64,000 nt of DNA from Yuukianura sp. NJ FZ-2021. Its lineage: Eukaryota. The position numbers were made by a program, and so were the translations under genes. The notes under the pieces are model-generated. The model did not search any database. It saw only the letters and a list, made by a program, of their open reading frames with translations, and was not told the DNA's origin. Every line of letters starts with the position of its first letter. The first letter of the stretch is position 1. This document shows positions 8,610 to 55,000 of the stretch, piece after piece. Location of the stretch: positions 3,100,001-3,164,000 of the forward strand of contig CM102286.1 of NCBI GenBank assembly GCA_046563655.1, given 5' to 3'.

Positions 8610-10215
8610 AACACATTGATTTTATGTCTAACTTAAGTTAAATAACTTAACTAAAAGCTAAGTTTAAGTAACCACCATAACCAAGTCTCCTCATGTGACG
8701 ATGTGATGAAAACGGAAGTGTCTTGTCTTTTATTTTATAAAGAAAAACCTTGTTGTTGTGTTTGCTTTAATTTTCTATATTATATTAATTATGTAATGTA
8801 CATTATACATATTCTAGTGAAAACACAAATTAGTTTATATTATATTTGAAAGAATACAGAGAAGCCTATTTATATTAATTTTATTTAGCTGTTTAGTAAT
8901 GAAATTGGACTAAACTATAATGTGGCTTTGTATCTTTCAAAAAAGCAATTTACTTTCTAAAAATTTAGGAAATTAGTTCTAAAAAGTATATAACTTTGCA
9001 AGGCCAGGCTCAAAATTCTTTCAAGTACTATGCAATAAATGACTAAACTAAAAGTAAACACTTGTATTAATTGAGAGATTAAGTTTAATGCGTCAATTTA
9101 CACTGATTTTAATTCTTGTCACATAACTAACCACCATAATTACGCTACTGATTTCATATGCGTCTTTCCAAAAGTGCTTCTGTTTGCTTCAAGCAAACCT
9201 CAAAGCACAAAAGAAACTTTATGTGAGTTACATAATGCAATGCAACTGCGACTTTACCAAAAAATTCTAACTCTGTAAACAATGCAATGTTAACAACAGA
9301 AGTCAGGATAACCACAACGCTAGCAATTTCTAATTTTAGCTGTCAAGTTATAGCCAAATGCAAATTGTCGTTAAAAATTTACATTGACTTCTATTCTTAA
9401 GTTGGAGAGAATTTGTGCATTTATTACGACATTTTAAAATAAATGGAACTTATAAAATTTAAAAAGTTGGAAACAAGTATTATTTTTTTTTGAAAATGTT
9501 AAAGGGCGAGTTTAGGACAAAATATTTTGTCTAAAACGCAGATTATTGAAACCATGGAGCAGAAATCTAATCTTCATCTGCATATTTGTTCCGTTTGAGT
9601 CCCATTGACGTCAGAAATTGCAAAATTAAATTGACATTGACTTTAGCAGATAAGATAAAATTTAGGTGCTATGCGACACTTTAGAGGTGCGAAAAAGAGG
9701 ACGAATGACAAGTGAAAGTCAAAAAAATTGTATTTTATATTTTAGATTCAAAATTTTGAATTTCAAATTATGTACTACGCAGATGCATTTTATTGTGCGA
9801 CTTAATAAAAACAACAGCAGTGATTTGTTATGGCCCTTACCCCTGTATCATGGACGACATAAAATTAAATTTCTCGTACGATTTCAGTTAACAGCATCAA
9901 AACACGATAAAATTTAAAAATTTTGGCGGGAATTACAAACTTGGTGGTTTATTTTCGAAACGTGTATTACGCCTTGTTATTTCTATAATTTGAAGGTCAA
10001 TGACTCCTCGTGCCTCCAGATGAACGCAGCTTAACTAATTAAGTTTTATGCAGTATTTCGAATCAACCCATATGTTTTCGCTACAATGGCACATTATGCA
10101 TCTACTATGCATGGATGATGACAATTCGCTGGAAACAGAATGGCCCCACAAGTATTGTAAAGTTTAATCCATTACAAAATAACGTTAGAGAATTCCTAAA
10201 CTTATCGTAATCGTC

Positions 10216-12573
10216 ATGAACGGAATTTCCTTTGCAGCGGCAATGTTAACCGCATTGCCGTACTTCCTAAGACTAGAAATTGACGAAGTTCGGAACGTAG
10301 ACAGAAAGCAGTTTCGACATGAAGACAAGAAGACCAAAAGATACGATTTCATCGTAGGTTAGTTCGATTAAGTAAAAATATGTGTAGCAAATATGACTTT
10401 AAAAACGGCGGGAATTTTTTAGTGGGAGGTGGAATTGGCGGTTGTGTAGTGGCTGGTCGTTTGTCTGAAAAGTTCAACGTCCTCTTACTGGAAGCTGGAG
10501 GTGAACCACCATCGGGCGCAGAAGTACCCGCATTTCATTCATTCATTGATGCTAACAAGCAAATTAACTACGCCTACACTTCTGTACCACAGGAAAAAGC
10601 CAACAACCGCGTAAGAATTCAAACCAAAATTTTAAAAACTTCGAAAAGTTTATTTCAGTTCATTTTGGCACAGAAAATTGGAGAAGTCCAAGGAAAAATG
10701 CTTGGTGGAAGTGGATCTTCCGGAGGACTCATCTACAGCAGAGGCCATCCGTATTTTCAGAATTTTTTTTTGAAAGTTTTTTTTTTACTCCAAAAATTTG
10801 AAATGCTTTAAAATTTTGATAATGTTGTTCTTATTTTAATTTAGAAAAGATTATGACAACTGGGCAAGAATGACAAAAGACCATAGTTGGAAATACAGCT
10901 CGCTGTTAAAATATTTCAAAAAAGCTGCTACTTACCACGGAACATGGCCGCAGGGGTGTAAGTTGGCGCGTTTTCTATTCAAATTTCGTTCACAATTTGT
11001 TTTCCGAAAAAATTTTGAATTTGTAATTCGGATCTTTTCCTTGCATCAGCTCATCATGGCAGTAACGGCCCAATCCATCTTGTTACCAGCACTCATCCAA
11101 TTGTCCCACTCTGGCTAGAGGCGGGAAAAGAATTAGGTTATGAAACAGTCGATCCAAACGCACCACAGCGGGAAGGTTTAATATTTCAAAAACTTAACAT
11201 TTCAAAATGAAGGAGTTCAAGAAATATTTTCTTCACTGAATCTGGTGTGCTTCTGTTACAGGATTCAGTCCGGCAGATGTCATGCGCGAACATGGCCGAC
11301 GCATTAGTACTTACAATACGTACGTCCAACCTTACATGACTTGGAGAGAGACATTGACCGTCCTCCGATACGCTTTTGTACATAAAATTTTGTTTCGCGG
11401 CTCACATGCCAGGGGAGTTGAATACATCCGACATGGAGTCAAACTAAAAGCTTACGCTACAAAGGAAGTTATAATTTCCGCAGGCGCATACGCCACTCCA
11501 CTGCTTCTCTTCAGGTCCGGAATCGGACCGGAAGAAGTTCTTGCAGCGGCAAATATAAAACAGCGAGTACATCTTCCTGTTGGCCGAAATCTGCAAAATC
11601 ACCCGGGTGTTGTACTTGGTCCATTCAGTGTAACAGATCCATCCAAACTTTCAAATGTTAACAACAATTTGACCGAAGAGGACTTTAAACTGTACTTAAA
11701 AGGGAAGCGGGGAACGGTAATGTCAGAAGCCGGTTTAGGGCCAATCGCTTTGCTGGTTTCGCCATTGGCAAAAGCCAGAGGAGAATCTGATTGGCCCGAT
11801 TTTCAATTTGTTCACGTAGCAACAAACTTCGCGGGAAAGGCTCCAAATGAACCAGTGCCTGCGAATCAGTTCTTTTTGATTGCCTTCGTCGGTCGACCGG
11901 AATTTAGTCATCAAAATCTAGGAAAAGTAACTCTGAACCCATCAGCTTATGCAAATAGGTCAACTAATAATGCAGAACTGGCTGTAATCGATTTCAAATT
12001 TTTGGAAAGCGAACAAGACTTTGACGTTTTGAAATACGGTAACAATCGACTTTTTTTTTAATTTCACAGATTAGTGAGCAAAAATTGGCATAGGTTTTAA
12101 AACAGTTTTGAATGTTTAAACTGTTTTAATTTCAGCGTTGAAAACTGGCCTTAAAGTGTTTAAAACCGAACCGTTCAAAAAGATTGGAACAACTTATATC
12201 AAAGACGCTGAATGTGGGCGGAGTCACAGCGTTCACAGTGATGGTTACTGGCGATGCTACATACGATCATATGCACATACGTTTTACCATCCAGCAGGAA
12301 CTTGCAGAATGGGTTATGGCAAAAGAGACAAAAATTCAGTTGTAGACTCTAAATTACGGTAAATTTAACACTCAAATTCAAAAAAAAAGCTGGAAACTTA
12401 GAAAAACTTTAGTTTAAATTCAGTCCTATTTCAGTGTCCTTGGAATCACTGGACTACGTATCGTAGACGCATCAGTTATGCCGCAAGTTACAAATTCAAA
12501 CACAAACGCTCCAGTTATTGTCATTGCCGAAAAGGCATCAGCTGATATTTTGGAAACGTATGATTCAGACTAA
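10216..12573 (+). CDS. GMC oxidoreductase (glucose dehydrogenase [FAD]-like), multi-exon
   Basis: [24 protein letters not shown]-binding motif, [81 protein letters not shown] at 12571-12573. Confidence 0.95.
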
Positions 12574-12712
12574 AAATATTCATCTTGAGCAGTAATAAAA
12601 ACAAGTATAAGTCCACAAAACTACAATTTAAATTAACATTTCAGTTGAAAAGATTAAAAAAATGTAAATCCAGCAAAGTTTTTTTTGGTTTAAATATTTT
12701 CGGTGGCAGTTT

Positions 12713-13558
12713 TTATGGAAATGCCGTAACTAGTTCGAGTAAATTTGAAAAGTAGTAATTTGGCGGGAATCCAAGCACGTCTGGTGGTGCTGGACTTCGT
12801 TTTAGCCAAGCAGTATTGTATCCATAACTTTTAGCTCCAGCAGCATCCCAACTGTTGCTGGACACAAACAAAACGTTTTTCTTCGCAATGCAACTCTCTT
12901 GTTCCAACCATGCGTAAACTGCAGGATTTGGTTTAAATGTCTTAACCGGGTCAACACTAATTACATCTGAGAAAAACGAACGAAGTCCCGCGTTTTTTAA
13001 AACCCGGGAAAGCATTCTGGGTGCTCCATTAGACAAAATGAAGAGTTTGCGTCCTGATGCTTTCAGTCTCTCGAGTCCTTCCCTGACTTCTGGGTATGGT
13101 GTAAGATGATACCAAGATCTTAGAAGATACTTTTTGTCTGAAGAGGTCAAAGTTCTATTGTAGAACTGCAGAGAATAGTCCAGTGCATCTTTAGTAACTT
13201 CCCAAAAGTCAACATATCGGTTCATGCTGTTTCGGAGCCATGAGCAACTCAGCTGCTTTTCTCTCCATAGTGCAGTAAAACTTGGCGGGAGATTTAAATG
13301 TGCAGCTCTCAAACTAGGAACCGTAGCGACGTCGAGTAGAGTTCCGTAGGCGTCAAAAGCCATTGCAGTATACTGCCCCGCTCTATTCAGAATTATACAA
13401 AAAATTCGCTAACAATTTTTTTCCACAATTTTTCATAATTTTATCAAAAAATAAAATAAATATTACTTTTTTGCACAACAAACGTTGGTATTTGTTGTCA
13501 ACCAGCTCCATGTTGGACACACAAAGGCGATCACAGTTGACACCAAGAAAAATTTCAT
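12713..13558 (-). CDS. L-2-haloacid dehalogenase (HAD type II) with signal-peptide exon; join(13467..13558, 12713..13382), 253 aa
   Basis: FDAYGTL nucleophile motif, WREKQL, LSNG, FKPNP.VY, FVSSNSWDAAGAKSYG. Upstream exon MKFFLVSTVIAFVCPTWSWLTTNTNVCCAK joins in phase 2 across an 84-nt GT-AG intron (13383-13466). Confidence 0.88.
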
Positions 13559-14177
13559 TCTAGAGTGCTTATTTTCTTACTTTAAAAATTCTTTGGTGTT
13601 CAAATTCTCATTTTATTGTTACTAAAAATTGAATTTAATCAACCATAAAGATACTGACAACTATAGTATTTAAAAAGGAGATGAATTGTCTAACTTATTG
13701 AAGCTGCACATGTGACTGAATTCATTTTAATGTAAAATGTACTCCACACAATGAAGAACCATCAGCAAAGTCAGTCATATAATTCATCATTACCTTAGAA
13801 ATTATTTGTATACTCCAATTGGGGAGAATAATGGCGTCAAATCAATGGGCTTATGGAATTTGCAAACAGAAAATCCTAGTCAATTTGAACTTTCTAAAAC
13901 GATGTGGTGAAGGAACGACAAGAAAAAAAAATCTTGACTCGAAATTCAAGATTTGGAAAAACTGGTTTACGGATATTCGCCTTTACCAACAACATCCTAC
14001 GTCTGAAATGCAAATTGAGAATGTTGCCATTACCTTCATCAATGAAGAGAATGAGGGTCACTACTACGAGTTTGCAATTTCAAGAAAAGTTATGACGTCA
14101 CACCGTAATTCCTTGATGTGGTATCTTTTCTCTTGTTAAAATTGTATATTTCTTAATTAGGAATTAGGTAGTAAACT

Positions 14178-16538
14178 ATGGGCTATCGGTGGAGTAGACA
14201 ATCAATTGGAACTGGATTATTCGTGTTTGCACTGCATTTACTCATTCTTGGTAAGCCATTAGGTTTTTTAACTTAAAAATTGATTTCACGATTCGAAAAT
14301 CTACAATTTTACACTAAACGGTGGTGAGGTGAATATTATTAATTGAAATGTGGCATAGTCAGGAATACAGAAACTCAAACACTACTTCCGAATTCGTGTC
14401 CGTTTAACCAATTTCGATGCTCGGATGGATCTGCTTGGTAACACTACTTTTCAAATGCTACGAGATTCTACGCTGTCAATTTTAAAATTCTAAAACTACA
14501 TTTTGTTAAATTTTAAGCTTACTATCCGAAAAGTTGTGCGATGGACATGAGGACTGTCCAAGCGGCGAAGACGAAACCGGAAATTCACAATGGGATTGCA
14601 GTTTGACAACGCTGAGTACTGCCTGCAGGTAAACACAGGAACTGAATTTCAATTGCCTGAACTTAATTTTGAAAATCTGATTGAACGATGTAAGATTCGG
14701 CTTTTAAATAAAATTTTTAGTTCGGACGAGTTCCGCTGTCGTTTTGGGGGATGCATCCCAAAATCTTTACAGTGCAATGGAAAAGTAATTTTAAAACAAC
14801 TTAAAAAACATTCAAAAGCAGTAAGTACAGGAAACGTTAATTGAGTTTGTGAACACTTTTAACACTCTAGGCAGACTGCTGGGGAGCCACAGACGAGTCA
14901 ACTGACCTTTGCTTCACAAGGTATATGTCAAAGGTCAACATTTCTTAAAACAATTAACATTTTAACAATTTAAAACTGGAGTTTTTTTTTTGCTAGACCG
15001 ACAAGGAGACCTCAAAGGCCCCAACCAACTACAAGTCGAACCAAATTGACCTCACCATTCCCTACACACCCAACCGCCACAATTCAAATTTCTCAAACCA
15101 TAGACTCTAATGAAGAATCTCATCATTTTCCAAAATTAAAACCGACGTCAACTTCTGAACGGCCAAAACATTCTTCAGCAGTAGAGGATGCTGATGGCAC
15201 AATTTCTGGACAACCTTCGAGTTCTTGTGAAATTTTAGTGCCTCCAAATGGTGCCCAAGTTACGTGTGAATTGAACAACTTTCCAGTCAAATGCACTTCG
15301 TTTCCCTCTCCAGAAGGCACTACTGCTCAATACAGGTGAGTTTAAGTAAAAGCGTTTCACTTTTCCAAAAATATCCAAAATTTTCAAATGTTTTAACTTC
15401 AAGATGCAAGCGGTTTTGGGGTTCGCCAAAAACGGGAAGCCAAACTGCATCTCGAATTTGCCAAAACGGACAATGGAGTCGTTTGAACAAAAATTGGAAA
15501 TGTTCGTTACAATGTGGCGAAGCTGGCTCAACTGCAACTGGATTCATTGTTAACGGATACGATTCTTTGGTGGGACGGTGGCCTTGGCACGTCGGTCTGT
15601 TTCAAGAAAACCCGCCAAATTCTGGGAAATTTGAATTCTTCTGCGGCGGGAGTCTGATTTCACGCCGGAGTGTTTTAACAGGTATTGGAAACTAACTCAT
15701 AGAATTCATAGTTTTAAAAACAAAAATTATGTACATTTCTACTTATTTTTCTTTTTTGAACTAGCTGCTCATTGTATAACAAAAAGTCAAACGTCAGAAA
15801 AACGCACCGACAGAATTCTAGCTCTGCTGGGAAAGCACAATCGAACTTTTAATAACGACGATGCTTATGTGCAGCAACGAGAGGTCATTGACCTAGACAT
15901 TCCAGAGTACTACACACCGAAATATTATGATCAAGATATTGGAATCATTTTGTTAGACGAGGTTTGTTGCTAATTCTTATGTTTTGAATTTGGCGCAATT
16001 TTAAGTTTTTTTTCTAACTATTACTTCAGGAAGCTGAAATTAGCGAGCGGGTACGCCCTGTCTGTTTACCAAATGACGAAGAAGAACCAGAACCAGGACT
16101 ACGCGGAACAGTATGTTTCATAATTTCAGTTTTTTGAATTTCGAAATTTAATTTGAAATTTTCGGAATTTTTTAGTTAGCTGGTTGGGGTCGGTGGGTAG
16201 ATCGTTCATACCCGGAGAACTTGCAAATGGCGGAACTGCCCGTTATTTCTGTCGGTGAATGTCGAAAGTCACATAGCTCTCTAGCTGCGCTGTCGAGGAG
16301 TACGACGTTCTGCGCAGGTTACAAGAATGGCACAAGTGCTTGTGATGGTGACTCCGGTGGGGGACTTGTGTTTGAAGACAATCAGAAATACTATGTTCAG
16401 GGCATTGTTAGTGCAGGAATCAATTCACACGGACAAGGAGGAGGATGTGATCCCCAGTTTTACACAATTTTTACAAAAGTCGGGAAATTTAGATCTTGGA
16501 TTGATCAAGTTTTGGATCAGAAGGAAGGCAGGATTTGA
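14178..16538 (+). CDS. Modular serine protease (LDLa repeats, Thr/Ser linker, CCP/sushi-like module, trypsin domain); ModSP-like
   Basis: Signal-like exon 1; LDLa motifs CPFNQFRCSDGSC...CDGHEDCPSGEDE and EFRCRFGGCIPKSLQCNG; activation site IVNG; catalytic triad motifs TAAHC, DIGII and GDSGGG. Confidence 0.9.
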
Positions 16539-22916: not shown

Positions 22917-25900
22917 TTAGACTTGGGTCGCTGGAAGATTTTTTGAATTTGTACGCACGGTTTCGAAAAATTGCTCAGAGAGGATCAGTGACGGGAGGTC
23001 AATAGCTGATTTTGTTCTCCTAGGAAATTGACCTGTGTGAGGCTTATGACTTATCATAGTCACTCCGGCAGCATAAGGTGAAAACAAAGAGTGTTGTCTA
23101 AGGCGCATGGGTTTTGCAGAGGAAACATAAAGTGAATTAGTATGATGGCTGATGTTACTAGTGAGGACGCCGGTAGGTATTCCGAAACTGCGCATGGCAA
23201 GGCCACCAACTGCAGTTCCATTTCCAGTTCGAATTTTTGTGTAGAGTGGATTTTCTTCCGTTAACAAATTCAATTTGGAAAATGATTTCTGAAAACAAGA
23301 ACAAAGGCGATGAGTTGTAAAACACAAAAATTTTGTTTCTTTCAGAAATGAATTAGGTTGGAATTTGCATAACCATCTCTTTGAATTTCAAGTCCAGTTC
23401 TAAACTGCTCCTTTTTATTTAAAATTCCTGTTTTAAATTAAGTCATTTTGTAGATGCGACAGCAGAGAATGGTTATGTGTAAGGCAGAACCATGATAGCA
23501 AAGGATAGTGGAATTGCTAGAGAAAAGAATTTTGAAAGTTGTATTTCCAACTACCTACGGCATTAAGCATTCCATACTAAATAATTTTCACGTTTTCCTG
23601 AAAGTTGCCTATTTTGGTTTCAAAAATTGCATTTTTTCCAATCCTAATTTTATTTTATTTTATTAAATTTTAAATATTAAAATCTGAATCCAAAACTTGT
23701 AGAACAAAACGAGATTAACAATCGCTGTCCCAATGTACCTCGAACTCATATGTTTCAGGAAATCGGCTATTACGTTACATACATCACTGATACGCTTGTC
23801 AGTCTGCGATTGTAAATTGGGGTTTATCTCTTCTGCAACACTAATTCGTTCATCATTCTTTACAGCTGACTACTACGTGAAGTCGTTTAGTGGCGATCTA
23901 CTTTTTCAATGCAAATTTCAACAGTCGCTGATGAAGTTCCAACTTTTCACCAATTATTTCGTTTTTTAAAAATATATTCAATTATGTTTTGCTAAAGTTT
24001 TCAAAAACGCCTTCTCCTAATTGTTTATTTTGTAACTCAAAATTATTAGTATTTGCGTTAAAAACAACTTTGTCGTAAATCTTTAGAGAATCTGTAAAAT
24101 ATCAAATGAGAACCCCACATCAAACACATCCTATACAATATTACAGTTCAACTCAAAACGATTATTAATAGCGAAAGCTATTAATAATCTGATCATGTCT
24201 GTCTGTCTGTCTGTCCGAGTCGCCAAATTATCTCGGAAACTACTGGTCGGAGTTTATCCAGGTTTTCACCAATGGACATTCCATGTCGGCCGCCAGATCA
24301 AGTTTAAATATCATCCCGATCTTTGACCTTTTACCGGGTCAAAGGTCAAGGTCATTGACCTATAAAACTGGGTAAAATGACCCTAACAAAAGTTGTTCCT
24401 CTCATTGAGGGGAGCAACGTTGGTATACGAAGCATGGGTCTCTGACCATTCCAAGGGGGTCAAAACCGGGATGAAAGGTCAACATCCCCCCACACAGTAC
24501 ATTGGATAGGGAAGCCGTCTATCGAGTGCTCATTCCATGCCATGGAGTCTATACGCCAGCCAACATGGCATAGGGTACCCCCACTCCCCCTGGGGAGAGG
24601 GTGTGGGCGAGAAGGTAAGGGAACCCACCCCCACTCCCCCGGGGGGGAGGTTGGGGGAAACACGCCCACTCTCCCGGGGAGGGGAGTGCGGGGAACACAC
24701 CGCGCTCCCTGGGGTGCGGAGCAAATAAGTGCGGGGGACACCCCCACTCCCCCTGGGGGGTCGGAAAAGTGGGGGGACCCACCCCCACTCCCCCTAGAAG
24801 GTGGGGAATTGAACACAAGCCCCGGGACGTTGAAGTTCCATTCAGTGAGCTTGAAAAAACCGCCTTATCGCTTGAGCTATTCGTTATGAGCGGTTTACAA
24901 CCGGTTTATTATGTAGTATTATTATACCAGAAGAGTTATAGTTTGAATTTTTATTTTTGATCCTTTGTTGATTGCATTTTCTCGTCTAAAATTCAGTTAC
25001 AGGGAAAATCAAGCGGAATTTTTGTTGCCAGAGTTACATTACTTCGAAATTAATTGTATGCCTTCGTGGAAAAAGGGTCAAACCAAGGCAACTAAACAAA
25101 ATGACACACCGCATTACTAAGGTAGTCTCACGAGCCGTGTTTTAATTGTTTTTTTTGCGAAAGTTATAGTGGGGTCGATTGTTTGTTTTTTACATTTCTG
25201 TGACAACGTTTTTCTTATGTTGGACAACAAAGTAAATTCATCCATTGTAACCATCCGTTGTAACCAATCATCAGACCTGTAGTTTAGATCGGTTTAAAGA
25301 TTGGAAAATGGAATTATACAAGTTTTACGCTTATAATTACTAAAAATTCATTACAACTCAATGGCAAATAGTTGATTTTGTGCCAAATATGGAACAGTGG
25401 TTACAAGTAACACATATCGTTACCCCAACCAACTTTTGCACAAATTAATCTCCCTGGATACCACCCCACTATAACTTTCGCAAAAAACAATTAAAAAACG
25501 GCTCGTGAGACTACCTTAGAAAGCGCGTGTGTCTTTTTGTTTAGTTGCCTTGGGTTAAACTCGTTTCAGTTTTTAAAACATTTTTAAACATTTGTTTATA
25601 AGTGCGTTAATTCTAATGCCAGATTTTCGGTTGCCCCGAGAAACCAAAATTCTAAAACGAGTTCAACCCTTTTTCCACGAAGGCATTCAATTACTGATAA
25701 AATAAAGGGATTAGATAGATCGGAAAAGGCTGATTGTATAACGCTGACGGTGACAATAATTTTTCACAGTAGCTGACTGTAAAAGTGAGAGTTCGGGATT
25801 TTGGGATCTGACGGTACTGTAATACGGTAGCCCGTGTTTGCTGATTGGAATTCATTTTTACACTTCCTACGTTACTTATGTGCTAATTGCATCATGTAAT

Positions 25901-42411: not shown

Positions 42412-44826
42412 ATGAAAGCCGTATTCCTTCTTGGCCTTTTGGTGGCCGTAGCTGTGGCAAAGAATTGTAAGGCTCCAACAAAAATTAAAAAAAAAATAGT
42501 CAAAATCCGAAAAAAATTAGTGTAAACTGATTTTAACCTGAAATTTGTTTTGAATTGCTTCTGCAGTGCCCCAAAAGCCAAGAACTTTTGGAAACTTTGG
42601 TCCTGATGTCCCAAGGTCATTCAAGTCGTACAAGGCAAAAGACCAGATTGTCCTCAACAGCGCAGATCCAGTTGACGCAGCAGTCGAGTAAGCTACTTAC
42701 TGATGATGCTGTTTTAAAATTCAAAATTTTGAAAATGCTAAATTTTCATTTTACTTGATAGATTTTTCACACGAAAATCCGGCTTCCCTGCTGCCCAGAC
42801 GCACATCGCCAGCTACCACACCGCTGGACACAACGGAGTGACTCACGTTTACCTCCAACAGATCGTCAACGGACTCCAAGTCGTCAACGGTGTCGCTAAC
42901 GTCAACGTTGGTCGCAATGGGCAAATCCTCTCCATTGGAAACTCATTCTTCAACGGACCAGCACCAAAATGTAACCTCAAATTCAACAAAAAGCTAAATT
43001 TTTCTTCAAATCAACAGTCTTCTGATTTTTTTTTTGTATTTTGTAGCCTCCCGCCCACTCCACTCCATCGTTGATGCCCAACAAGCTTTGGAAGCCATCA
43101 CTGGCTCCAAGCCCGGCAAACTCAACACCGAATTCCCAGCCAGCTTGAAATACATCAACAATGGCGAGAGCTTGGTTCTTGCCTGGGACTTTGTTTACGA
43201 AACCGAGGATAACATGTAAAAAAAAAGTTCAAATCCTAAAAACTTTGAACTTTAGGCTTGAAACTTGAAATTTTGATGTCACTTGAACCATAGGTACAAT
43301 GCCATTATCGATGCCACGACCAACACCGTTGTTCAACTCGTCGATTGGGTTTCCGATGCTGCCTACACTGCTTACCCACTTGGAATCAACGATCCACTCA
43401 GCGGAGATCGCGAAGTCATTGTTGACCCAGCTCATCCAGTTGCCTCTCCCTTGGGATGGCATTCACAGGGTGATGGAAATGACTTCACCGATACTCAAGG
43501 AAACAACGTCTTCGCTCAGGAGAACACTGGTAAGGAACTAACTTTTAATAACTAAATTCAAAACGATTTCTAACCGTGCCAAATTTGAATTTTCTTAAAG
43601 ACGGTACTTCTGACTGGGAAAACAACTACAGACCAGACGGAGGAGCTGATTTGATCTTTGATCCAGCACTTGACTTGACCGAACAGCCAGCTCAATACTT
43701 GGATGCTTCCATCACCAACTTGTTCTACTGGAACAACGAGATCCACGATTTGTTCTGTAAAAAATATTTTTGAAAACTATGTTTCAAATTGTTTCGAAAT
43801 TTCAAAACTTTTGGAAATCTTATTCGAATTTGTTTTTCCAGACGTCTACGGATTCGATGAAGTTTCTGGCAACTTCCAACACAACAACCTCGGACGAGGA
43901 GGACTCGGAAATGACGCAGTCATTGCCAACGCCCAAGATGGTTCTGGATACAACAACGCCAACTTCATGACCCCACCCGACGGAAGCCAAGGACGCATGC
44001 GCATGTACGTCTGGACTCAGACTAACCCATGGAGGGATGGAGATTTGGACGGAGGCATTGTCGTAAGTTACAAAACCGGGAAATATTTGAAAATCAAAGA
44101 AAAATCTACTTGAAAATTACCTAAAAATTTTGTAGATGCACGAGTACCTCCACGGTATCTCAATCCGTCTTACCGGAGGACCAAGCAACGTCAACTGTCT
44201 CGGATTTGGAGAAGCCGGAGGAATGGGAGAAGGTTGGGGAGACACCTTTGCCACCATCACTCGAGTCACCGCAGAGACCAGCAGTAACCAAGTCTATCAA
44301 ATGGGAGACTACTCCAACGGTGGTTCTGGAATCCGAAACTACCCATACTCCACTGACTTCGACGTCAATCCATCCACCTACGCATTCATCACGCGTCCAG
44401 GATACGGTGGTGTCCACGCCAAGGGTAAGCGAATTCTTCCACTAGATGGCGCTATTCGTCCGCTCAATTCTTGCTATAACTCAGCGTTGGTTTGTGATTC
44501 TAGGAGAAGTCTGGGCTGTCATCCTCTACGAAGTCTTCTGGCAATTGGTTGAGGAAAGTGGATTCCAAAGCGACTGGTTCGACGTTGAAGCTGCAAACCC
44601 AGGAGGAAACATCAAGTTCTTCCAGAACGTCATTGACGGCATGAAGCTCCAGCCATGCAACCCATCCTTCGTTGAGGCTCGTGATGCCATCTTGGAAGCC
44701 GATGGAAACAACTACGGAGGAGCCAACACATGCGCCATGTGGCGAGGATTTGCCAAACGTGGTCTCGGAGAGGGAGCCCGCACTGGTGGAACTGAAAGCT
44801 TCGATGTTCCAGCTGAATGTCAATAA
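42412..44826 (+). CDS. Secreted fungalysin (peptidase M36) with FTP propeptide, 9 exons
   Basis: Signal [19 protein letters not shown]-like [78 protein letters not shown] zinc motif, [37 protein letters not shown]. Confidence 0.95.
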
Positions 44827-45560: not shown

Positions 45561-46681
45561 CCGTATTTTCCCAAATAGTACACCTGGTGTACTAATTTTG
45601 TTTTCGACTTCTGGGGGTGGTGTACTATTAGGGATCTGGTGTATTATTAGAGACGGTGTACTAATTAATTTTTTAAGAATGAGGATTTTATTCTTAACTA
45701 AAACGTTTAGGAATCAGGAGAAAATAATTTCTAAATTACTAAAAACTACTCCACTTCGTTCTCAGAATCCCTATCCACAGTGTCCAAGTCGTATTCTTCT
45801 TCTCCACTTGAGTCAATTAACACAGTTTTCAACCAGTCACAGGTCAGATCATCGTTCATCCAACCATTTGATGAATGGTTTCAGCTTTGTTCCGTCACCT
45901 TTGGCCTCTAGAACAAGCGTAGCGTGTGCCTTCTCATTTCCAGTCGACTTTAGTTGAACAGTTTTAGATCCAGTTGGAGCAATTGTTGTGTTACTCAGCA
46001 TGTCGAACAACAGACTGGTTTCGTCCATTGCAATAATTTGTGATGGTTCGATCTTCGTTCTGTTTCCGTTATCCAATCCGTAATCCAGTAAAAGAGTGAA
46101 TCATCCAACTCAGGGATCAATCGTTTCCGTCCACCGCCGATCAACCTTTTGTGTTTGACCTTGGATGATTTCACGTTTGACACTATAAACAAAATACTGT
46201 TTCAGTACGAACGTAATAATGAGGAAAAAATTTTATTTACAATAATTACTCACCTAAAGCATTTTCCTTTCTAATCCATGTACGAATACTCTGTCGATCA
46301 ATGTTGTATTCTTTAGCAGCTGCAGAAATTGATTTATCCTTGGCCAATTTCAACACTTTCAATTTGAACTCCAGGTCAAATGATCTTTTTTTTTGTTGGG
46401 AGACATTTTAAGTAAGAATACGAATGTTAAGTAAAACAATTTGAGGAGAAGTAACGTGGAGATAAACACAACAAATGAAGACCTATAATATTACTAGCTC
46501 AACTACCTTCTCCGGGTGTTATACTCCTAATGCTACATTACCAACGACCCTGGTGTACTATTAGAGACCTGGTGTACTATTTGGGACGGTGTACTAATTA
46601 ATTTTTCGGCCCCTGGACCTGGTGTACTATTAGGGACCTGGTGTACTATTTAGGTATGGTGTACTATTAGGGAAAATACGG
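45561..46681 (-). mobile_element. Internally deleted pogo/Tigger-type (Tc1/mariner superfamily) transposon
   Basis: TIR CCGTATTTTCCC.AATAGTACACC with TA TSDs at 45559-60 and 46682-83; subterminal GGTGTACTA repeats. Transposase remnants: HTH (SFDLEFKLKVL...AAAKEYNIDRQSIRTW), GGGRK, and DDE_1 start MDETSLLFDM...STGNEK. Confidence 0.93.
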
Positions 46682-47173
46682 TATTGTACATTTGTGGCAT
46701 CAGCGGTGGCATAGGCATAACATACTGAGGTTGTGGGATTACCAATGGCGTTTGAATGATAAGAGGATAAGGTTGGTGGCTACGGTAGGAAGGCGGCGGG
46801 TAGTACTGTTGAGGCGGGGCACCGTAACCATAGTCGTTATATTGATACGGTGGTGGTGGATATCTGGATCTGTATCGCGAGTAGCCGTATCCTTCATCCA
46901 TATCCATATAACCATAGGCTGGTGTTGTGGTTGTATCTGGAGGAGGAGTGGTAGTGTCTGGAGGTGGTGGTGGAGGAGTTGTGGGAGGTTGAGTAGTACT
47001 TGAGTAGCATTTCTTGTACTTTTTTTTCCTATAACTTCTTGGAAATCGTAGATGATGGTGGTTGCCGGAGTTAGGCGGGTAGTTACCGGTAGTGAAGTTT
47101 TCGTTGTTCCACGCCTTTGCCAGCATACCGCTTCCATCACCCTGGAATGGAGTTGGACCGGGACCAAACAATT

Positions 47174-48031
47174 CCCGGACTCCAAAGGATGGTCACTAAC
47201 GGCCTGATATCCGAATATCCTAACGGACTGTTAAGAATGGACAGTCACTATTGGCCAGCCTCCGGCAGATGGTCGCTAGAGGGCCATCACCAACGGCCAC
47301 ATACGCTAATTTACACTTAATACTGGACGGTCGGTCACTAATGGACATTAACACATCTTGCTTTAGTTACTCAAAATTTGCTTTACTTACGTTACTAAAA
47401 ATCTGTAAATTTTCATTGCCTGAAGCAAGGCGTCAATGTCCATTAGTAGCGACCATCCACTAACTAGTGTTCAGTAAAGTAAGTGTCCGTTTGGTGACTG
47501 TCCTTTAGTGATCATTCGTTACTGACAGTCTATTATTGACTGTCCGTTTGGATGTCGGGCCGTTAGTGGCCGTCCATTATAATTAGGGGGTGTAAATCCG
47601 GATTTTTTTATTTCGGATATAAATCCGGATTTTGTTTTTCCGGATATAAATCCGGGTTTTTGACGGATGCGGATTCTTCCAAATCCGGTTTTGAAAAAAA
47701 TGGAATCCGGGTTCGACGGACTTTTCGTTTCATTTCAAGATAGTATGGAGAATTGGAAAATTGATGTCGAAAACAGAAATACTGAGTTAAAATAAAAAAA
47801 ATCACTCTGAAATCAAGTTAATCAGAAAGGAGTATTCCTGACGTCCGTTATCAATTTTTTTTGCTAGAGTATTAAACCAACGTTGTCCATAATTTTGTTA
47901 CTGCAAATATTGTTATGGAAAATCCTATATATTCTGAAATCCGGAGTTTTTAATAAAAATCCGACAAAATCCGAAATCCGGATTTCTCGAAAGCAGTAAC
48001 GGATTTACACCACTAATTTTAATTGACTGGT
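47174..48031. mobile_element. Non-autonomous TIR element inserted in the pseudogene exon (hosts a nested hAT MITE)
   Basis: GGATGGTCACTAACGGCCTGATATCC is inverted against GGATGTCGGGCCGTTAGTGGCCGTCC; repeated GTCACTA/TAGTGAC motifs; absent from the paralog at about 54580. Ends are approximate. Confidence 0.7.
47584..48015. mobile_element. hAT-type MITE, nested
   Basis: Termini TAGGGGGTGTAAATCCG and CGGATTTACACCACTA; 8-bp TSD ATTATAAT/ATTTTAAT (7 of 8 match); subterminal AAATCCGG repeats. Confidence 0.85.
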
Positions 48032-52045: not shown

Positions 52046-55000
52046 TTATCGCGAAAATGAACGTACACGACCTTTGCTGTAAACACTGACACTGGACGAA
52101 ACCGAGACTTTCTCAGTCGCTTCTTGTTCATATCCATCACCTTCAGAGTCGTAATCGTCTGGATAAATTTCTGCCTCAGAAGAATCTGATGGAGCTACAG
52201 TCGTCGTCGTTGTCGTTGTACTTTTAGGTGTGGTAGGTGGCGTTGGTGGTGGAGTAGAAATTTCAGCAATAGTAGTGTATACTGGCCGTGAAGTTGTGGT
52301 TGTTCGAGAATGTCGTTTATACTTTCCCGCCGAAGTTTCACTGTAGCTACTATAGTAGGACTGGAACGGTGAAGGTTTTGGTGATGTTGGAGCTTGTGTA
52401 GAATACCAGTACGAGTAGTGATCTTCAGGAGGTGAATAAGTATAGAGAGTGGTAGTGGAGGGAGGGGGTGTGGTATAGGGGGCGGGAGTAGTAGCAGAAA
52501 TATGGTAAACAATCTGTGGATATGGCGTTGTGGCGTACGTTGTTGGAGTTGTTGTTGTAGGTGGCGCTGTAGTAGTCGTCTCTTCCGTAGTTGTCGTAGG
52601 TTCTGTAGTTGTCGTGTATGGAGGGGCTACTGTAGCTGCATAAGATGGTACATAGGGATTCGGTTGCCAATAGGAGTTTGGTAGAGACGAATGGTGACTT
52701 GGTGGGGCAAAGAAGTTGTGAAAAGTAGCTGGAGGTTGATTTGCAGTGGCATGGCTGTAATGACTTTGTATATTGGGTGTGTGATAGGTGGGCGGAGGAG
52801 GGGGTGTGGGATAAGGGGAGTTAGTATGGTAAACAATCTGTGGATATGGCGTTGTGGCGTACGTTGTTGCAGGTGGCGTCGTAGTAGTTGTTTCTTCCGT
52901 AGTTGTCGTAGGTGCGTAAGGAGGGGCTACTGTAGCTGCATAAGATGGTATATAGGGGTTTGGTTGCCAATAGGAGTTTGGTGGAGACGACTGGTGGCTT
53001 GGTGGGGCAAAGAAGTTATGAGCAGTAACAGGAGGTTGATTTGCAGTTACATGGTTGTACTGATTTTGCATATTGGGTGTGTGATAGGTGGGCGGAGGAG
53101 GGGGTGTGGGATAGGGTGCGGGTGTAGTAGCAGGAATATAGTAAACAATCTGTGGATAAGGTGTTGTGGCATACGTTGTGGGAGGAATTGTTGTTCTTGT
53201 TGTTGTAGGTGGCGCTGTAGTGGTCGTTTTTTCCGTAGTTGTCGTAGCTTCTGTAGTTGTGTATGTAGTCGGAGGAGGTGCGTAATTTGGAGTGGGCGGG
53301 GCTGCCGTAGTTGCGTAATATGGAGCTGGTGGGGCTGGTGGAGTTGCATAATATGGAGTGGGAGGGGCTGCTGTAGTTGCGTAAGATGGTCCATAGGGAT
53401 TTGGTTGAGAATAGGAATTTGGCGGGAAATATGGCGGGGACGACTGGTGGCTTGGCGGAGCAAAGAAGTTATGGACATTAACAGGAGGTTGATTTGCAGT
53501 GGCATGGTTGTACTGATTTTGCATATTGGGTGTGTGATAGGTGGGCGGAGGAGGGGGTGTGGGATAGGGTGCGGGTGTAGTAGCAGGAATATAGTAAACA
53601 ATCTGTGGATAAGGTGTTGTGGCATACGTTGTGGGAGGAATTGTTGTTGTTGTTGTTGTAGGTGGCGCTGTAGTGGTCGTTTTTTCCGTAGTTGTCGTAG
53701 CTTCTGTAGTTGTGTATGTAGTCGGAGGAGGTGCGTAATTTGGAGTGGGCGGGGCTGCCGTAGTTGCGTAATATGGAGCTGGTGGGGCTGGTGGAGTTGC
53801 ATAATATGGAGTGGGAGGGGCTGCTGTAGTTGCGTAAGATGGTCCATAGGGATTTGGTTGCGAATAGGAATTTGGTGGGAAATATTGCGGGGACGACTGG
53901 TGGCTTGGTGGAGCAAAGAAGTTATGGACATTAACCGGAGGTTGATTTGCAGTGCCAGGGTTGTACGGAGCCTGCATTGGTGGGGTATATCCATAAGGAT
54001 TGTACATTTGTGGCATCGGTGGTGGCATAATATACTGAGGCTGTGGTGGTGGCATAATATACTGAGGCTGTGGTGGAGGCATAATATACTGCGGTTGTGG
54101 CATCTGTGGTGGCATTATGTACTGAGGTTGTGGCATTACATAGGGTGGTGTCTGAATGATAATAGGAGATGGTTGGTGGCTCCCGTAGGAGGGTGGTTGG
54201 TAGTACTGCTGAGGTGGGGGCGGTGGGGCATCGTAACCATAGTTGTTATATCGATACCGTGATTGTGGATATCTGGATCTGTATCGCGAATAGTCGTATC
54301 CTCCATCCATGTCCATGTAACCATAAGCTGGTGTTGTGGTTGTATCAGGAGGAGGAGTGGTAGTGTCTGGAGGTGGAGTTGTCGTTGGCGGTTGAGTAGT
54401 AGTTGAGCAGCATTTCTTTTTGTACTTCTTTTTCTTATATCGTTTTGGAGGCTGGTAGGTGCCATAGTTGTTGGGCTGGTAGTTACCGTAGTTACCGGGA
54501 GGGTAGTTACCACTGTTACTCGATTTGGCCATCGTATAGTTCCCACCACCCTGGAATGGAGTTGGACCGGGACCTGGAAATTTACCGGGACCAAACGGAC
54601 CGCCAAATATGCCATCAAATGGAGGAAATGCAGGACCACCTAAAAAGGAAAATCATTTCCATGTCATTTCCAATAAGGCATATATTTTTTTTAAACTAGA
54701 ATTTGTAACGTTTCAACAAAAATTTGAATTCTGGCGCATTTTCAAATTGACTTTGAAAAGCGACTAAGCTCATCTTTTCAGGACCAACTTGTTTTAATCC
54801 AGTTTTTCCCAATCAAATCAACCAAGATGCAAAATTTTTTTAAATTTGGAAATGACTGGAAATGACTTGCCTGGCACGAATGGGAATAAACCAGGATTAA
54901 AAAAGCCGCCCTTACTGTAGATGCCGTAAGGAAAGCCCCAGAATGGAAATTTGTAAGGCGGGAAAAAGACACGATCTTCTGCTTGAATCGTGGAATTTGA

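Follow-up and report, generated by a model that had tools for sequence, protein, structure and literature searches.

A bacterial-type haloacid dehalogenase gene with a predicted secretory leader exon in the arthropod Yuukianura sp.

The dehalogenase gene and its enzyme family

The 64,000-nucleotide stretch of DNA considered here (positions 3,100,001 to 3,164,000 of contig CM102286.1, forward strand, assembly GCA_046563655.1 of the arthropod Yuukianura sp. NJ FZ-2021; hereafter the window) carries on its minus strand a gene for a type II L-2-haloacid dehalogenase of bacterial type, which appears to consist of a short upstream exon encoding a hydrophobic leader and a longer exon encoding the whole enzyme domain. 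Hydrolytic 2-haloacid dehalogenation is regarded as a microbial capability. A counterpart of the gene is found on L001, an independent 15,051-nucleotide metagenome contig of a related arthropod, whose product is 66% identical to that of the window over residues 1-211 (metagenome contig scan). The parts of the gene are as follows, in window coordinates.

13467 to 13558, minus strand: exon 1, 92 nucleotides, encoding a hydrophobic leader; the ATG at 13558-13556 opens 30 codons plus two bases
13505 to 13558, minus strand: predicted signal peptide, codons 1-18, with K2, a hydrophobic core F3-V13 and then C-P-T-W-S with small residues at −3 and −1 (hydropathy; −3/−1 rule applied by hand)
13383 to 13466, minus strand: putative phase-2 intron, 84 nucleotides, GTAATA...AATAG (sequence, intron style of a neighbouring gene, counterpart in L001)
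12713 to 13382, minus strand: exon 2, 670 nucleotides, an intron-free exon that encodes the complete type II haloacid dehalogenase domain and ends with the stop at 12713-12715 (Pfam, TIGR01428 and 1jud)
13361 to 13363, minus strand: in-frame internal ATG, Met38 of the 253-residue model and a rival single-exon start, unconserved in L001, where the codon is ATA (Ile)
13352 to 13354, minus strand: codon of the nucleophile Asp, D4 of the product P0001 and equivalent to D10 of the dehalogenase L-DEX YL (phmmer alignment)
13151 to 13159, minus strand: N-R-T sequon (N69 of P0001), a possible N-glycosylation site (alignment column)

The stop-to-stop frame at 12713-13408 on the minus strand is open for 231 codons, and reading from the ATG at 13363 (12713-13363) gives P0001, a product of 216 residues that starts four residues before the nucleophile Asp. 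P0001 matches the Pfam families PF00702 (5.3e-20) and PF13419 (8.7e-16). It also scores 193.4 bits against the NCBIfam equivalog TIGR01428 ('haloacid dehalogenase type II'), for which the curated cutoff is 125.4 bits; this match has an E of 4.2e-57 and extends from position 5 to position 195 of the 197 in the profile. Among PDB sequences searched with phmmer the top match is the L-2-haloacid dehalogenase 1jud (E 7.6e-47), with residues 1-215 of P0001 aligned on residues 7-222 of the chain.

In this alignment D4, T8, R34, S111, K144, Y150, S168, N170 and D173 of P0001 stand on D10, T14, R41, S118, K151, Y157, S175, N177 and D180 of L-DEX YL respectively, nine positions that are taken here to be the catalytic residues defined in the mutagenesis literature. 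The L001 copy keeps the nucleophile Asp and all eight of the other catalytic residues. Membership of the type II L-2-haloacid dehalogenase family, in its bacterial form, is thus strongly supported by the aligned sequences, and the domain looks catalytically complete. An earlier note on this DNA had pointed to an intronless 216-residue haloacid dehalogenase domain opening close to the nucleophile, with the catalytic motifs of the group II enzymes; both descriptions are borne out, the first by the position of ATG 13363 relative to D4 and the second by the TIGR01428 score and the nine positions matched on 1jud.

Upstream exon and predicted leader

The frame of exon 1 contains a stop six codons upstream of the ATG at 13558, and its predicted donor (AA/GTAATA, at 13467/13466) and acceptor (AATAG/A, at 13383/13382) would join it in frame to exon 2 to give a product of 253 residues. 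The earlier note had proposed just such a 92-nucleotide exon spliced in phase, and the sequence features are as it described. A DNA contig (X2 record 15) covering 13353-13532 contains the intron, with no DNA joint at its position. The intron also fits the local style, since its length and GTAA-type donor match those of eight introns inferred from 11 gaps in a neighbouring gene for an MFS transporter, which by this heuristic reconstruction are 70-176 nucleotides long, with GTAA-type donors in six of the eight and AG acceptors in all of them. With at least eight short introns in that gene, the remark in the earlier note that the catalytic exon lies intronless amid intron-rich neighbours holds.

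Exon 2 aligns collinearly with L001 9735-10379, and over 215 residues the two proteins are 65% identical (tblastx). Upstream of it L001 carries an exon at 9556-9650, which begins with an ATG at 9556, is 95 nucleotides long and ends at a donor CC/GTAATA, with in-phase acceptors at 9721 or 9727; the resulting intron of 71 or 77 nucleotides has the same GTAATA donor and the same phase as that of the window. Measured from the first base of FDAYGT, the two genes are laid out as follows.

ATG: −201 in the window, −197 in L001
Donor: −109 in the window, −102 in L001
Acceptor: −25 in the window, −25 in L001

By this comparison the two-exon model is well supported, with splicing deduced from the two sequences. 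The proportions of nonsynonymous (pN) and synonymous (pS) differences between the window and L001 are 0.213 and 0.754 over the whole gene, and 0.210 and 0.734 from codon 47 to the end, where the ratio of the corresponding rates (dN/dS) is 0.086; these values strongly support the view that purifying selection has conserved the gene in two or more diverged species, and they speak indirectly for its expression in the host.

Classical signal peptides have a basic n-region, a hydrophobic h-region of 7-15 residues and a c-region in which the residues at −3 and −1 are small. The Kyte-Doolittle maximum over nine residues reaches 2.67 in the window leader (1.40 elsewhere in the protein) and 2.90 in that of L001 (1.10 elsewhere). 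The L001 leader has R2, a core L7-V17 and G-V-A before position 19, where the window leader has T-W-S. Both leaders, on a hand reading, have a basic residue at position 2, a hydrophobic core of 11-12 residues and small residues at −3 and −1 of a cleavage between positions 18 and 19, and so agree with the n-, h- and c-region pattern of a cleavable signal peptide. Cysteines come after the leader in both species.

A further feature of the protein bears on its route. The sequon is present at the same alignment column in the window (N-R-T), L001 (N-S-T) and the metagenome relative P0243 (N-R-T), the three closest members of the clade that have the region, whereas only 3 of the 225 other rows occupied at this column show one; passage through the endoplasmic reticulum (ER) fits this clade-specific N-x-T. 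The leader thus appears to route the enzyme to secretion. Of the gain of a secretion exon claimed in the earlier note, the exon has been strengthened by the equivalent upstream exon with a hydrophobic leader and the same phase in L001, while secretion itself stays a prediction from the leader. A 'gut or cuticle' site of action and 'soil or fungal organohalogens' as substrates, which the note had also suggested, are speculation with nothing beyond plausibility behind them.

Secretion has been read from hydropathy and a −3/−1 rule applied by hand, and the same two exons could instead encode a signal anchor, or a leader that targets the ER, the lysosome or another organelle, so that the enzyme would be intracellular or membrane-bound, and the cysteines after the leader might have some other function in both species. 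Against this, cores of 11-12 residues are, by the classical criteria, rather short to span a membrane but usual in signal peptides that are cleaved, and both leaders carry the small residues at −3 and −1 of the position 18/19 cleavage. The conserved clade-specific N-x-T fits passage through the ER lumen and would equally fit residence in the ER or lysosome. Taken together, a destination other than secretion is unlikely, if still worth bearing in mind beside the preferred secretory leader.

Leaders are also found in bacterial and metagenomic members of the family. By eye, Tat-like (twin-arginine) leaders, with an RR motif followed by a hydrophobic stretch, are present in P0098, P0248, P0415, P0420 and P0426 (44-45% identical to P0001) and in P0258 (41%), and P0247 has a Sec-type leader within a single open reading frame. 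Exported type II dehalogenases therefore seem to exist in bacteria. The statement of the earlier note that the prokaryotic enzymes are cytoplasmic was too strong, because these Tat-like leaders indicate that the family is not purely so.

Distribution and origin of the gene

Homologues were collected by searches of which the best 120-150 matches each were listed, most of them without an organism name. In the word-indexed search the closest match is P0003 (67% identical), followed by matches at 48% or below, and all organism names shown among the 120 matches listed are bacterial. An exhaustive HMMER search of 1.84 billion cluster representatives returned 5651 matches at E ≤0.001, of which only P0243 (54%) and P0003 (67%) exceed 46% identity. 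Identity above 48% to the window protein is thus confined, among the matches listed, to metagenome relatives. Of 600 candidate stretches in named prokaryote genomes, 598 code for relatives; those with the highest identity (44-47%) come from soil metagenome-assembled genomes of Terriglobales, Methylomirabilis, Actinomycetes and Acidimicrobiia.

No eukaryote name occurs among the best 120 matches of a search with a profile of the clade, nor among the 120 listed in the word-indexed search. Five of 30 clusters looked up are named, three with an organism (all bacteria) and two only as '2-haloacid dehalogenase'; the bacterial homologue P0040 falls in bacterial clusters only in the Protein Atlas, which says little. 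On the matter of broad metazoan orthologues, which the earlier note had raised as a check, no animal name appears among the matches listed, all organism names being bacterial.

In a 60-row IQ-TREE phylogeny the window protein is joined in turn by four relatives to form a five-member clade, with the following support (ultrafast bootstrap / Shimodaira-Hasegawa-like approximate likelihood ratio test).

Window and L001: 99/87
With P0243 added: 95/70
With P0295 added: 97/65
With P0366 added (five-member clade): 97/87

P0003 is the L001 gene itself as a prokaryote-style gene call, cut at an internal Met of the spliced gene. Along with P0295, P0366, P0333, P0345, P0410 and P0411 it belongs to a set of calls of 171-187 residues that start at or near the internal Met47 and do not include the nucleophile motif; the other six may be similar miscalls of spliced genes.

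Horizontal transfer best accounts for the distribution of homologues, for the lack of introns in the catalytic exon and for the assignment to a bacterial family. Of the transfer claimed in the earlier note, the fit to the homologue distribution stands, whereas nesting within bacteria is not seen in the tree. In a 230-row FastTree labelled bacteria lie on both sides of the branch that encloses the clade. As to a donor group, the 230-row and 60-row trees have no stable sister in common and none is named. The transfer would be old, since synonymous sites are saturated between the two species and the composition of the gene is fully ameliorated to that of its host.

An old eukaryotic gene passed on by vertical descent and lost in most animals would likewise give a clade outside any bacterial group, and the nearby N-terminally truncated calls of low-GC type (P0366, P0333, P0345, P0410 and P0411) might be eukaryotic. 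Fungi and some marine invertebrates have genes annotated as type II dehalogenase homologues, which would favour such descent. Against it, no eukaryote name was met in the two 120-match listings or the 30 clusters, in a database that gave named insects when searched with the adjacent Jun gene; introns are absent from the catalytic exon although the neighbourhood is rich in them; and identity to diverse soil bacteria is flat at 44-48%. Vertical descent is accordingly held to be quite unlikely, and an ancient transfer from bacteria is preferred.

Start of translation, genomic setting and comparison with known systems

A simpler gene structure would be a single exon read from the ATG at 13363, giving a cytosolic enzyme, with the upstream 'exon' a chance open reading frame. 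The window does have this in-frame ATG, the sequence of exon 1 is not conserved and splicing is deduced from sequence. In addition, an in-phase ATG exon alone means little, because one was found in 0.84 of 2000 randomised upstream regions for the window (0.77 for L001). An exon resembling a signal peptide and followed by a GTAA donor arose in 0.0375 of the randomised regions for the window and 0.0205 for L001, and both species carry such an exon, with near-equal offsets, a shared phase and an identical GTAATA donor.

The L001 gene argues further against a single exon. Its frame has Ile (ATA) at the position of window Met38, and its first in-frame ATG is codon 47, past the nucleophile and the equivalent of R41, yet codons 1-46 are constrained between the species (pN 0.225, pS 0.825), so L001 needs a start upstream. 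In full-length bacterial homologues (alignment A2) the FD motif is preceded by about 5-10 residues, not by the two that a start at 13363 would leave. A single-exon cytosolic enzyme is therefore considered very unlikely, and the two-exon model is retained.

The dehalogenase gene lies in a block of four genes that is collinear between the window and L001, in which the three neighbours are confirmed by Pfam. These genes, and the region upstream of the dehalogenase, are placed in the window as follows.

7.7 to 8.8 kb: Jun
12.7 to 13.4 kb, minus strand: dehalogenase
13559 to 14384, no strand assigned: divergent intergenic region, presumed promoter region, between the dehalogenase (minus) and the LDLa/trypsin protease (plus), the first conserved block of which is near 14385
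14.4 to 16.5 kb, plus strand: LDLa/trypsin protease
about 17.8 to 20.4 kb: MFS transporter

The best named relatives of the Jun neighbour are insects, at about 42-46% identity; its closest matches are contigs that include L001, the Jun of which is 80% identical, and this points to an arthropod that lacks close annotated relatives. Base composition (GC, the fraction of G and C, and GC3, the same at third codon positions) was compared among three sets of sequences.

Dehalogenase exon 2: GC 0.434, GC3 0.370
Five host exons: GC 0.386-0.466, GC3 0.354-0.500
78 bacterial homologue stretches (median): GC 0.626, GC3 0.748

Bacterial contamination or a chimeric contig, suggested by a protein of bacterial type and by Logan contigs too short to bridge the gene to both neighbours, was rejected as vanishingly improbable, because an independent assembly of different origin has the gene at the corresponding position, flanked by the same arthropod genes, because its GC and GC3 agree with host exons and differ widely from bacterial homologues, and because the L001 copy cannot start translation without the spliced exon. 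The gene is thus integrated among arthropod genes and does not come from a chimeric contig, a possibility that the earlier note had raised. The Logan contigs themselves, from four runs, are mostly 150-400 nucleotides long and polymorphic, and none of the pieces listed spans the stretch or bridges both neighbours; one of them (X2 record 13) covers 12508-12736.

Other features of the window were noted. Between the dehalogenase and Jun, on the plus strand at 10323-12573, lies a GMC oxidoreductase gene (PF00732) with no counterpart in the corresponding L001 interval 10400-11586 (about 1.2 kb), a difference that, from the two sequences, is put down to lineage-specific insertion or loss. A multi-exon gene for a fungalysin-type M36 metallopeptidase lies at 42742-44826 on the plus strand, two of its exons matching PF02128 at 3e-34 and 8.1e-33; the M36 fungalysin family is mainly fungal and bacterial, and this gene may be a second acquired gene in the window. 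Two Pro/Thr/Tyr-rich repetitive open reading frames with common motifs, both on the minus strand (52046-54652, 868 residues; 46650-47192, 180 residues), look like mucin-like or structural secreted proteins, and the window at 52-54 kb has a strong GC skew of 0.52 at a GC of 0.48. The interval 24446-24960, which is GC-richer, open in several frames on both strands and contains Gly/Pro-rich repeats, is probably a repeat element.

Taking the evidence as a whole, it is thought probable, with appreciable room for doubt, that the window holds a functional two-exon arthropod gene for a bacterial-type type II L-2-haloacid dehalogenase with a secretory leader and an ancient bacterial origin. A bacterial gene would have entered this arthropod lineage long ago, and a short 5' exon would have been added or recruited, providing the start codon and a cleavable signal peptide of 18 residues. 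The protein would then enter the secretory pathway, with possible N-glycosylation at the clade-specific N-x-T site. The mature enzyme would act like its bacterial relatives, the Asp attacking C2 of an L-2-haloalkanoate and displacing the halide, and the resulting ester intermediate being hydrolysed to a D-2-hydroxy acid.

Several observations weigh against this account. At the level of the transcript and its product, the joining of exon 1 to exon 2 is deduced from sequence; exon 1 is without sequence similarity between the species, blastn and tblastx similarity between the window and L001 beginning at 13367-13375, so that position, phase, donor and hydrophobic character are what the two have in common; and the in-frame ATG just ahead of the domain makes a cytosolic form possible in the window. 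The secretion signal is predicted from hydropathy and the hand-applied −3/−1 rule. A Logan contig from another study (X5 record 24; 1084 nucleotides, depth 137) matches 12690-13151 with 22 differences and then runs into unlike sequence inside the coding region, departing at the sequon codon (13151), with flanks beyond 13255 at a depth of about 2-7; this contig could stem from a close relative in which the copy is rearranged or interrupted, or it could be an artefact.

The phylogeny adds to these points. Neither tree places the arthropod clade inside a bacterial group, the 60-row IQ-TREE setting it at the midpoint root and the 230-row FastTree placing it, with weak support, among N-terminally truncated gene calls, and the trees took in no named eukaryotic type II dehalogenases. 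Within the clade, P0243 has I at the K151 position and E at the D180 position, and in P0295 SNG is replaced by SDG, K151 by Q and D180 by T, which suggests, as far as residues can tell, that not every member need be a dehalogenase and that activity may have been lost or changed in part of the clade.

A more far-reaching version, in which an ancient capture was followed by the addition of a signal-peptide exon and an N-glycosylation site, the enzyme hydrolyses haloacids outside the cell, P0243 and P0295 have other functions, and the whole forms a small animal family derived from one transfer, is possible but doubtful. If true, such an extracellular enzyme would constitute an animal detoxification route undescribed before.

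In soil and plant-feeding arthropods there are enzyme genes of bacterial or fungal origin that arrived by horizontal transfer and subsequently acquired introns and signal peptides. The result listings of full-text literature searches, in which subscription journals and supplementary tables were not included, contain no account of an arthropod that received a type II haloacid dehalogenase in this way. An arthropod enzyme of this kind, under selection since before two lineages split and apparently exported, would add a new enzyme class to the acquired bacterial genes of soil arthropods and would bear on the role of such genes in coping with environmental chemistry. It would also show, by comparison of two species, how eukaryotic expression of a transferred gene can be achieved: a 5' exon brings the start codon and a signal peptide, the phase-2 intron is conserved, the base composition is fully ameliorated and a sequon is gained. 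Since prokaryote-style gene calling on metagenome contigs truncated P0003, the closest relative, at an internal Met of the L001 gene, other eukaryotic genes of this type may be hidden by calls of the same sort.

Among characterised enzymes the closest is L-DEX YL of Pseudomonas sp. YL (1jud, 1qh9, 1zrm and 1zrn), with which P0001 shares full-length collinearity, the nucleophile motif, the nine catalytic residues and TIGR01428 membership. In contrast to L-DEX YL, the gene described here lies in an arthropod genome, has a putative extra 5' exon with a leader resembling a eukaryotic signal peptide, and carries the clade-specific N-x-T sequon. Two other solved type II dehalogenases, DhlB (1qq5 and 1aq6) and DehIVa (2no4), presumably from Xanthobacter autotrophicus and Burkholderia cepacia respectively (the PDB titles name the enzyme alone), match P0001 at E 9.1e-41 and 1.7e-40 over about 190-210 residues and differ from the window gene in the same respects. 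Identity to full-length bacterial homologues is only about 44-48%.

The homologues with Tat-like leaders share the catalytic domain of the window gene, but their leader is of the twin-arginine type and continuous with the domain in one open reading frame, whereas that of the arthropod gene is a separate exon of eukaryotic Sec type; in the 60-row tree they group with Acidobacteriota and Pseudomonadota, away from the arthropod clade. The enzymes that arthropods have acquired from microorganisms resemble the window gene in being bacterial-type enzymes situated among host genes, with host-like composition, retention in relatives, a 5' intron and a secretory leader. The dehalogenase gene belongs to this known class of arthropod-acquired bacterial enzymes with a leader exon, and extends it without breaking the category.

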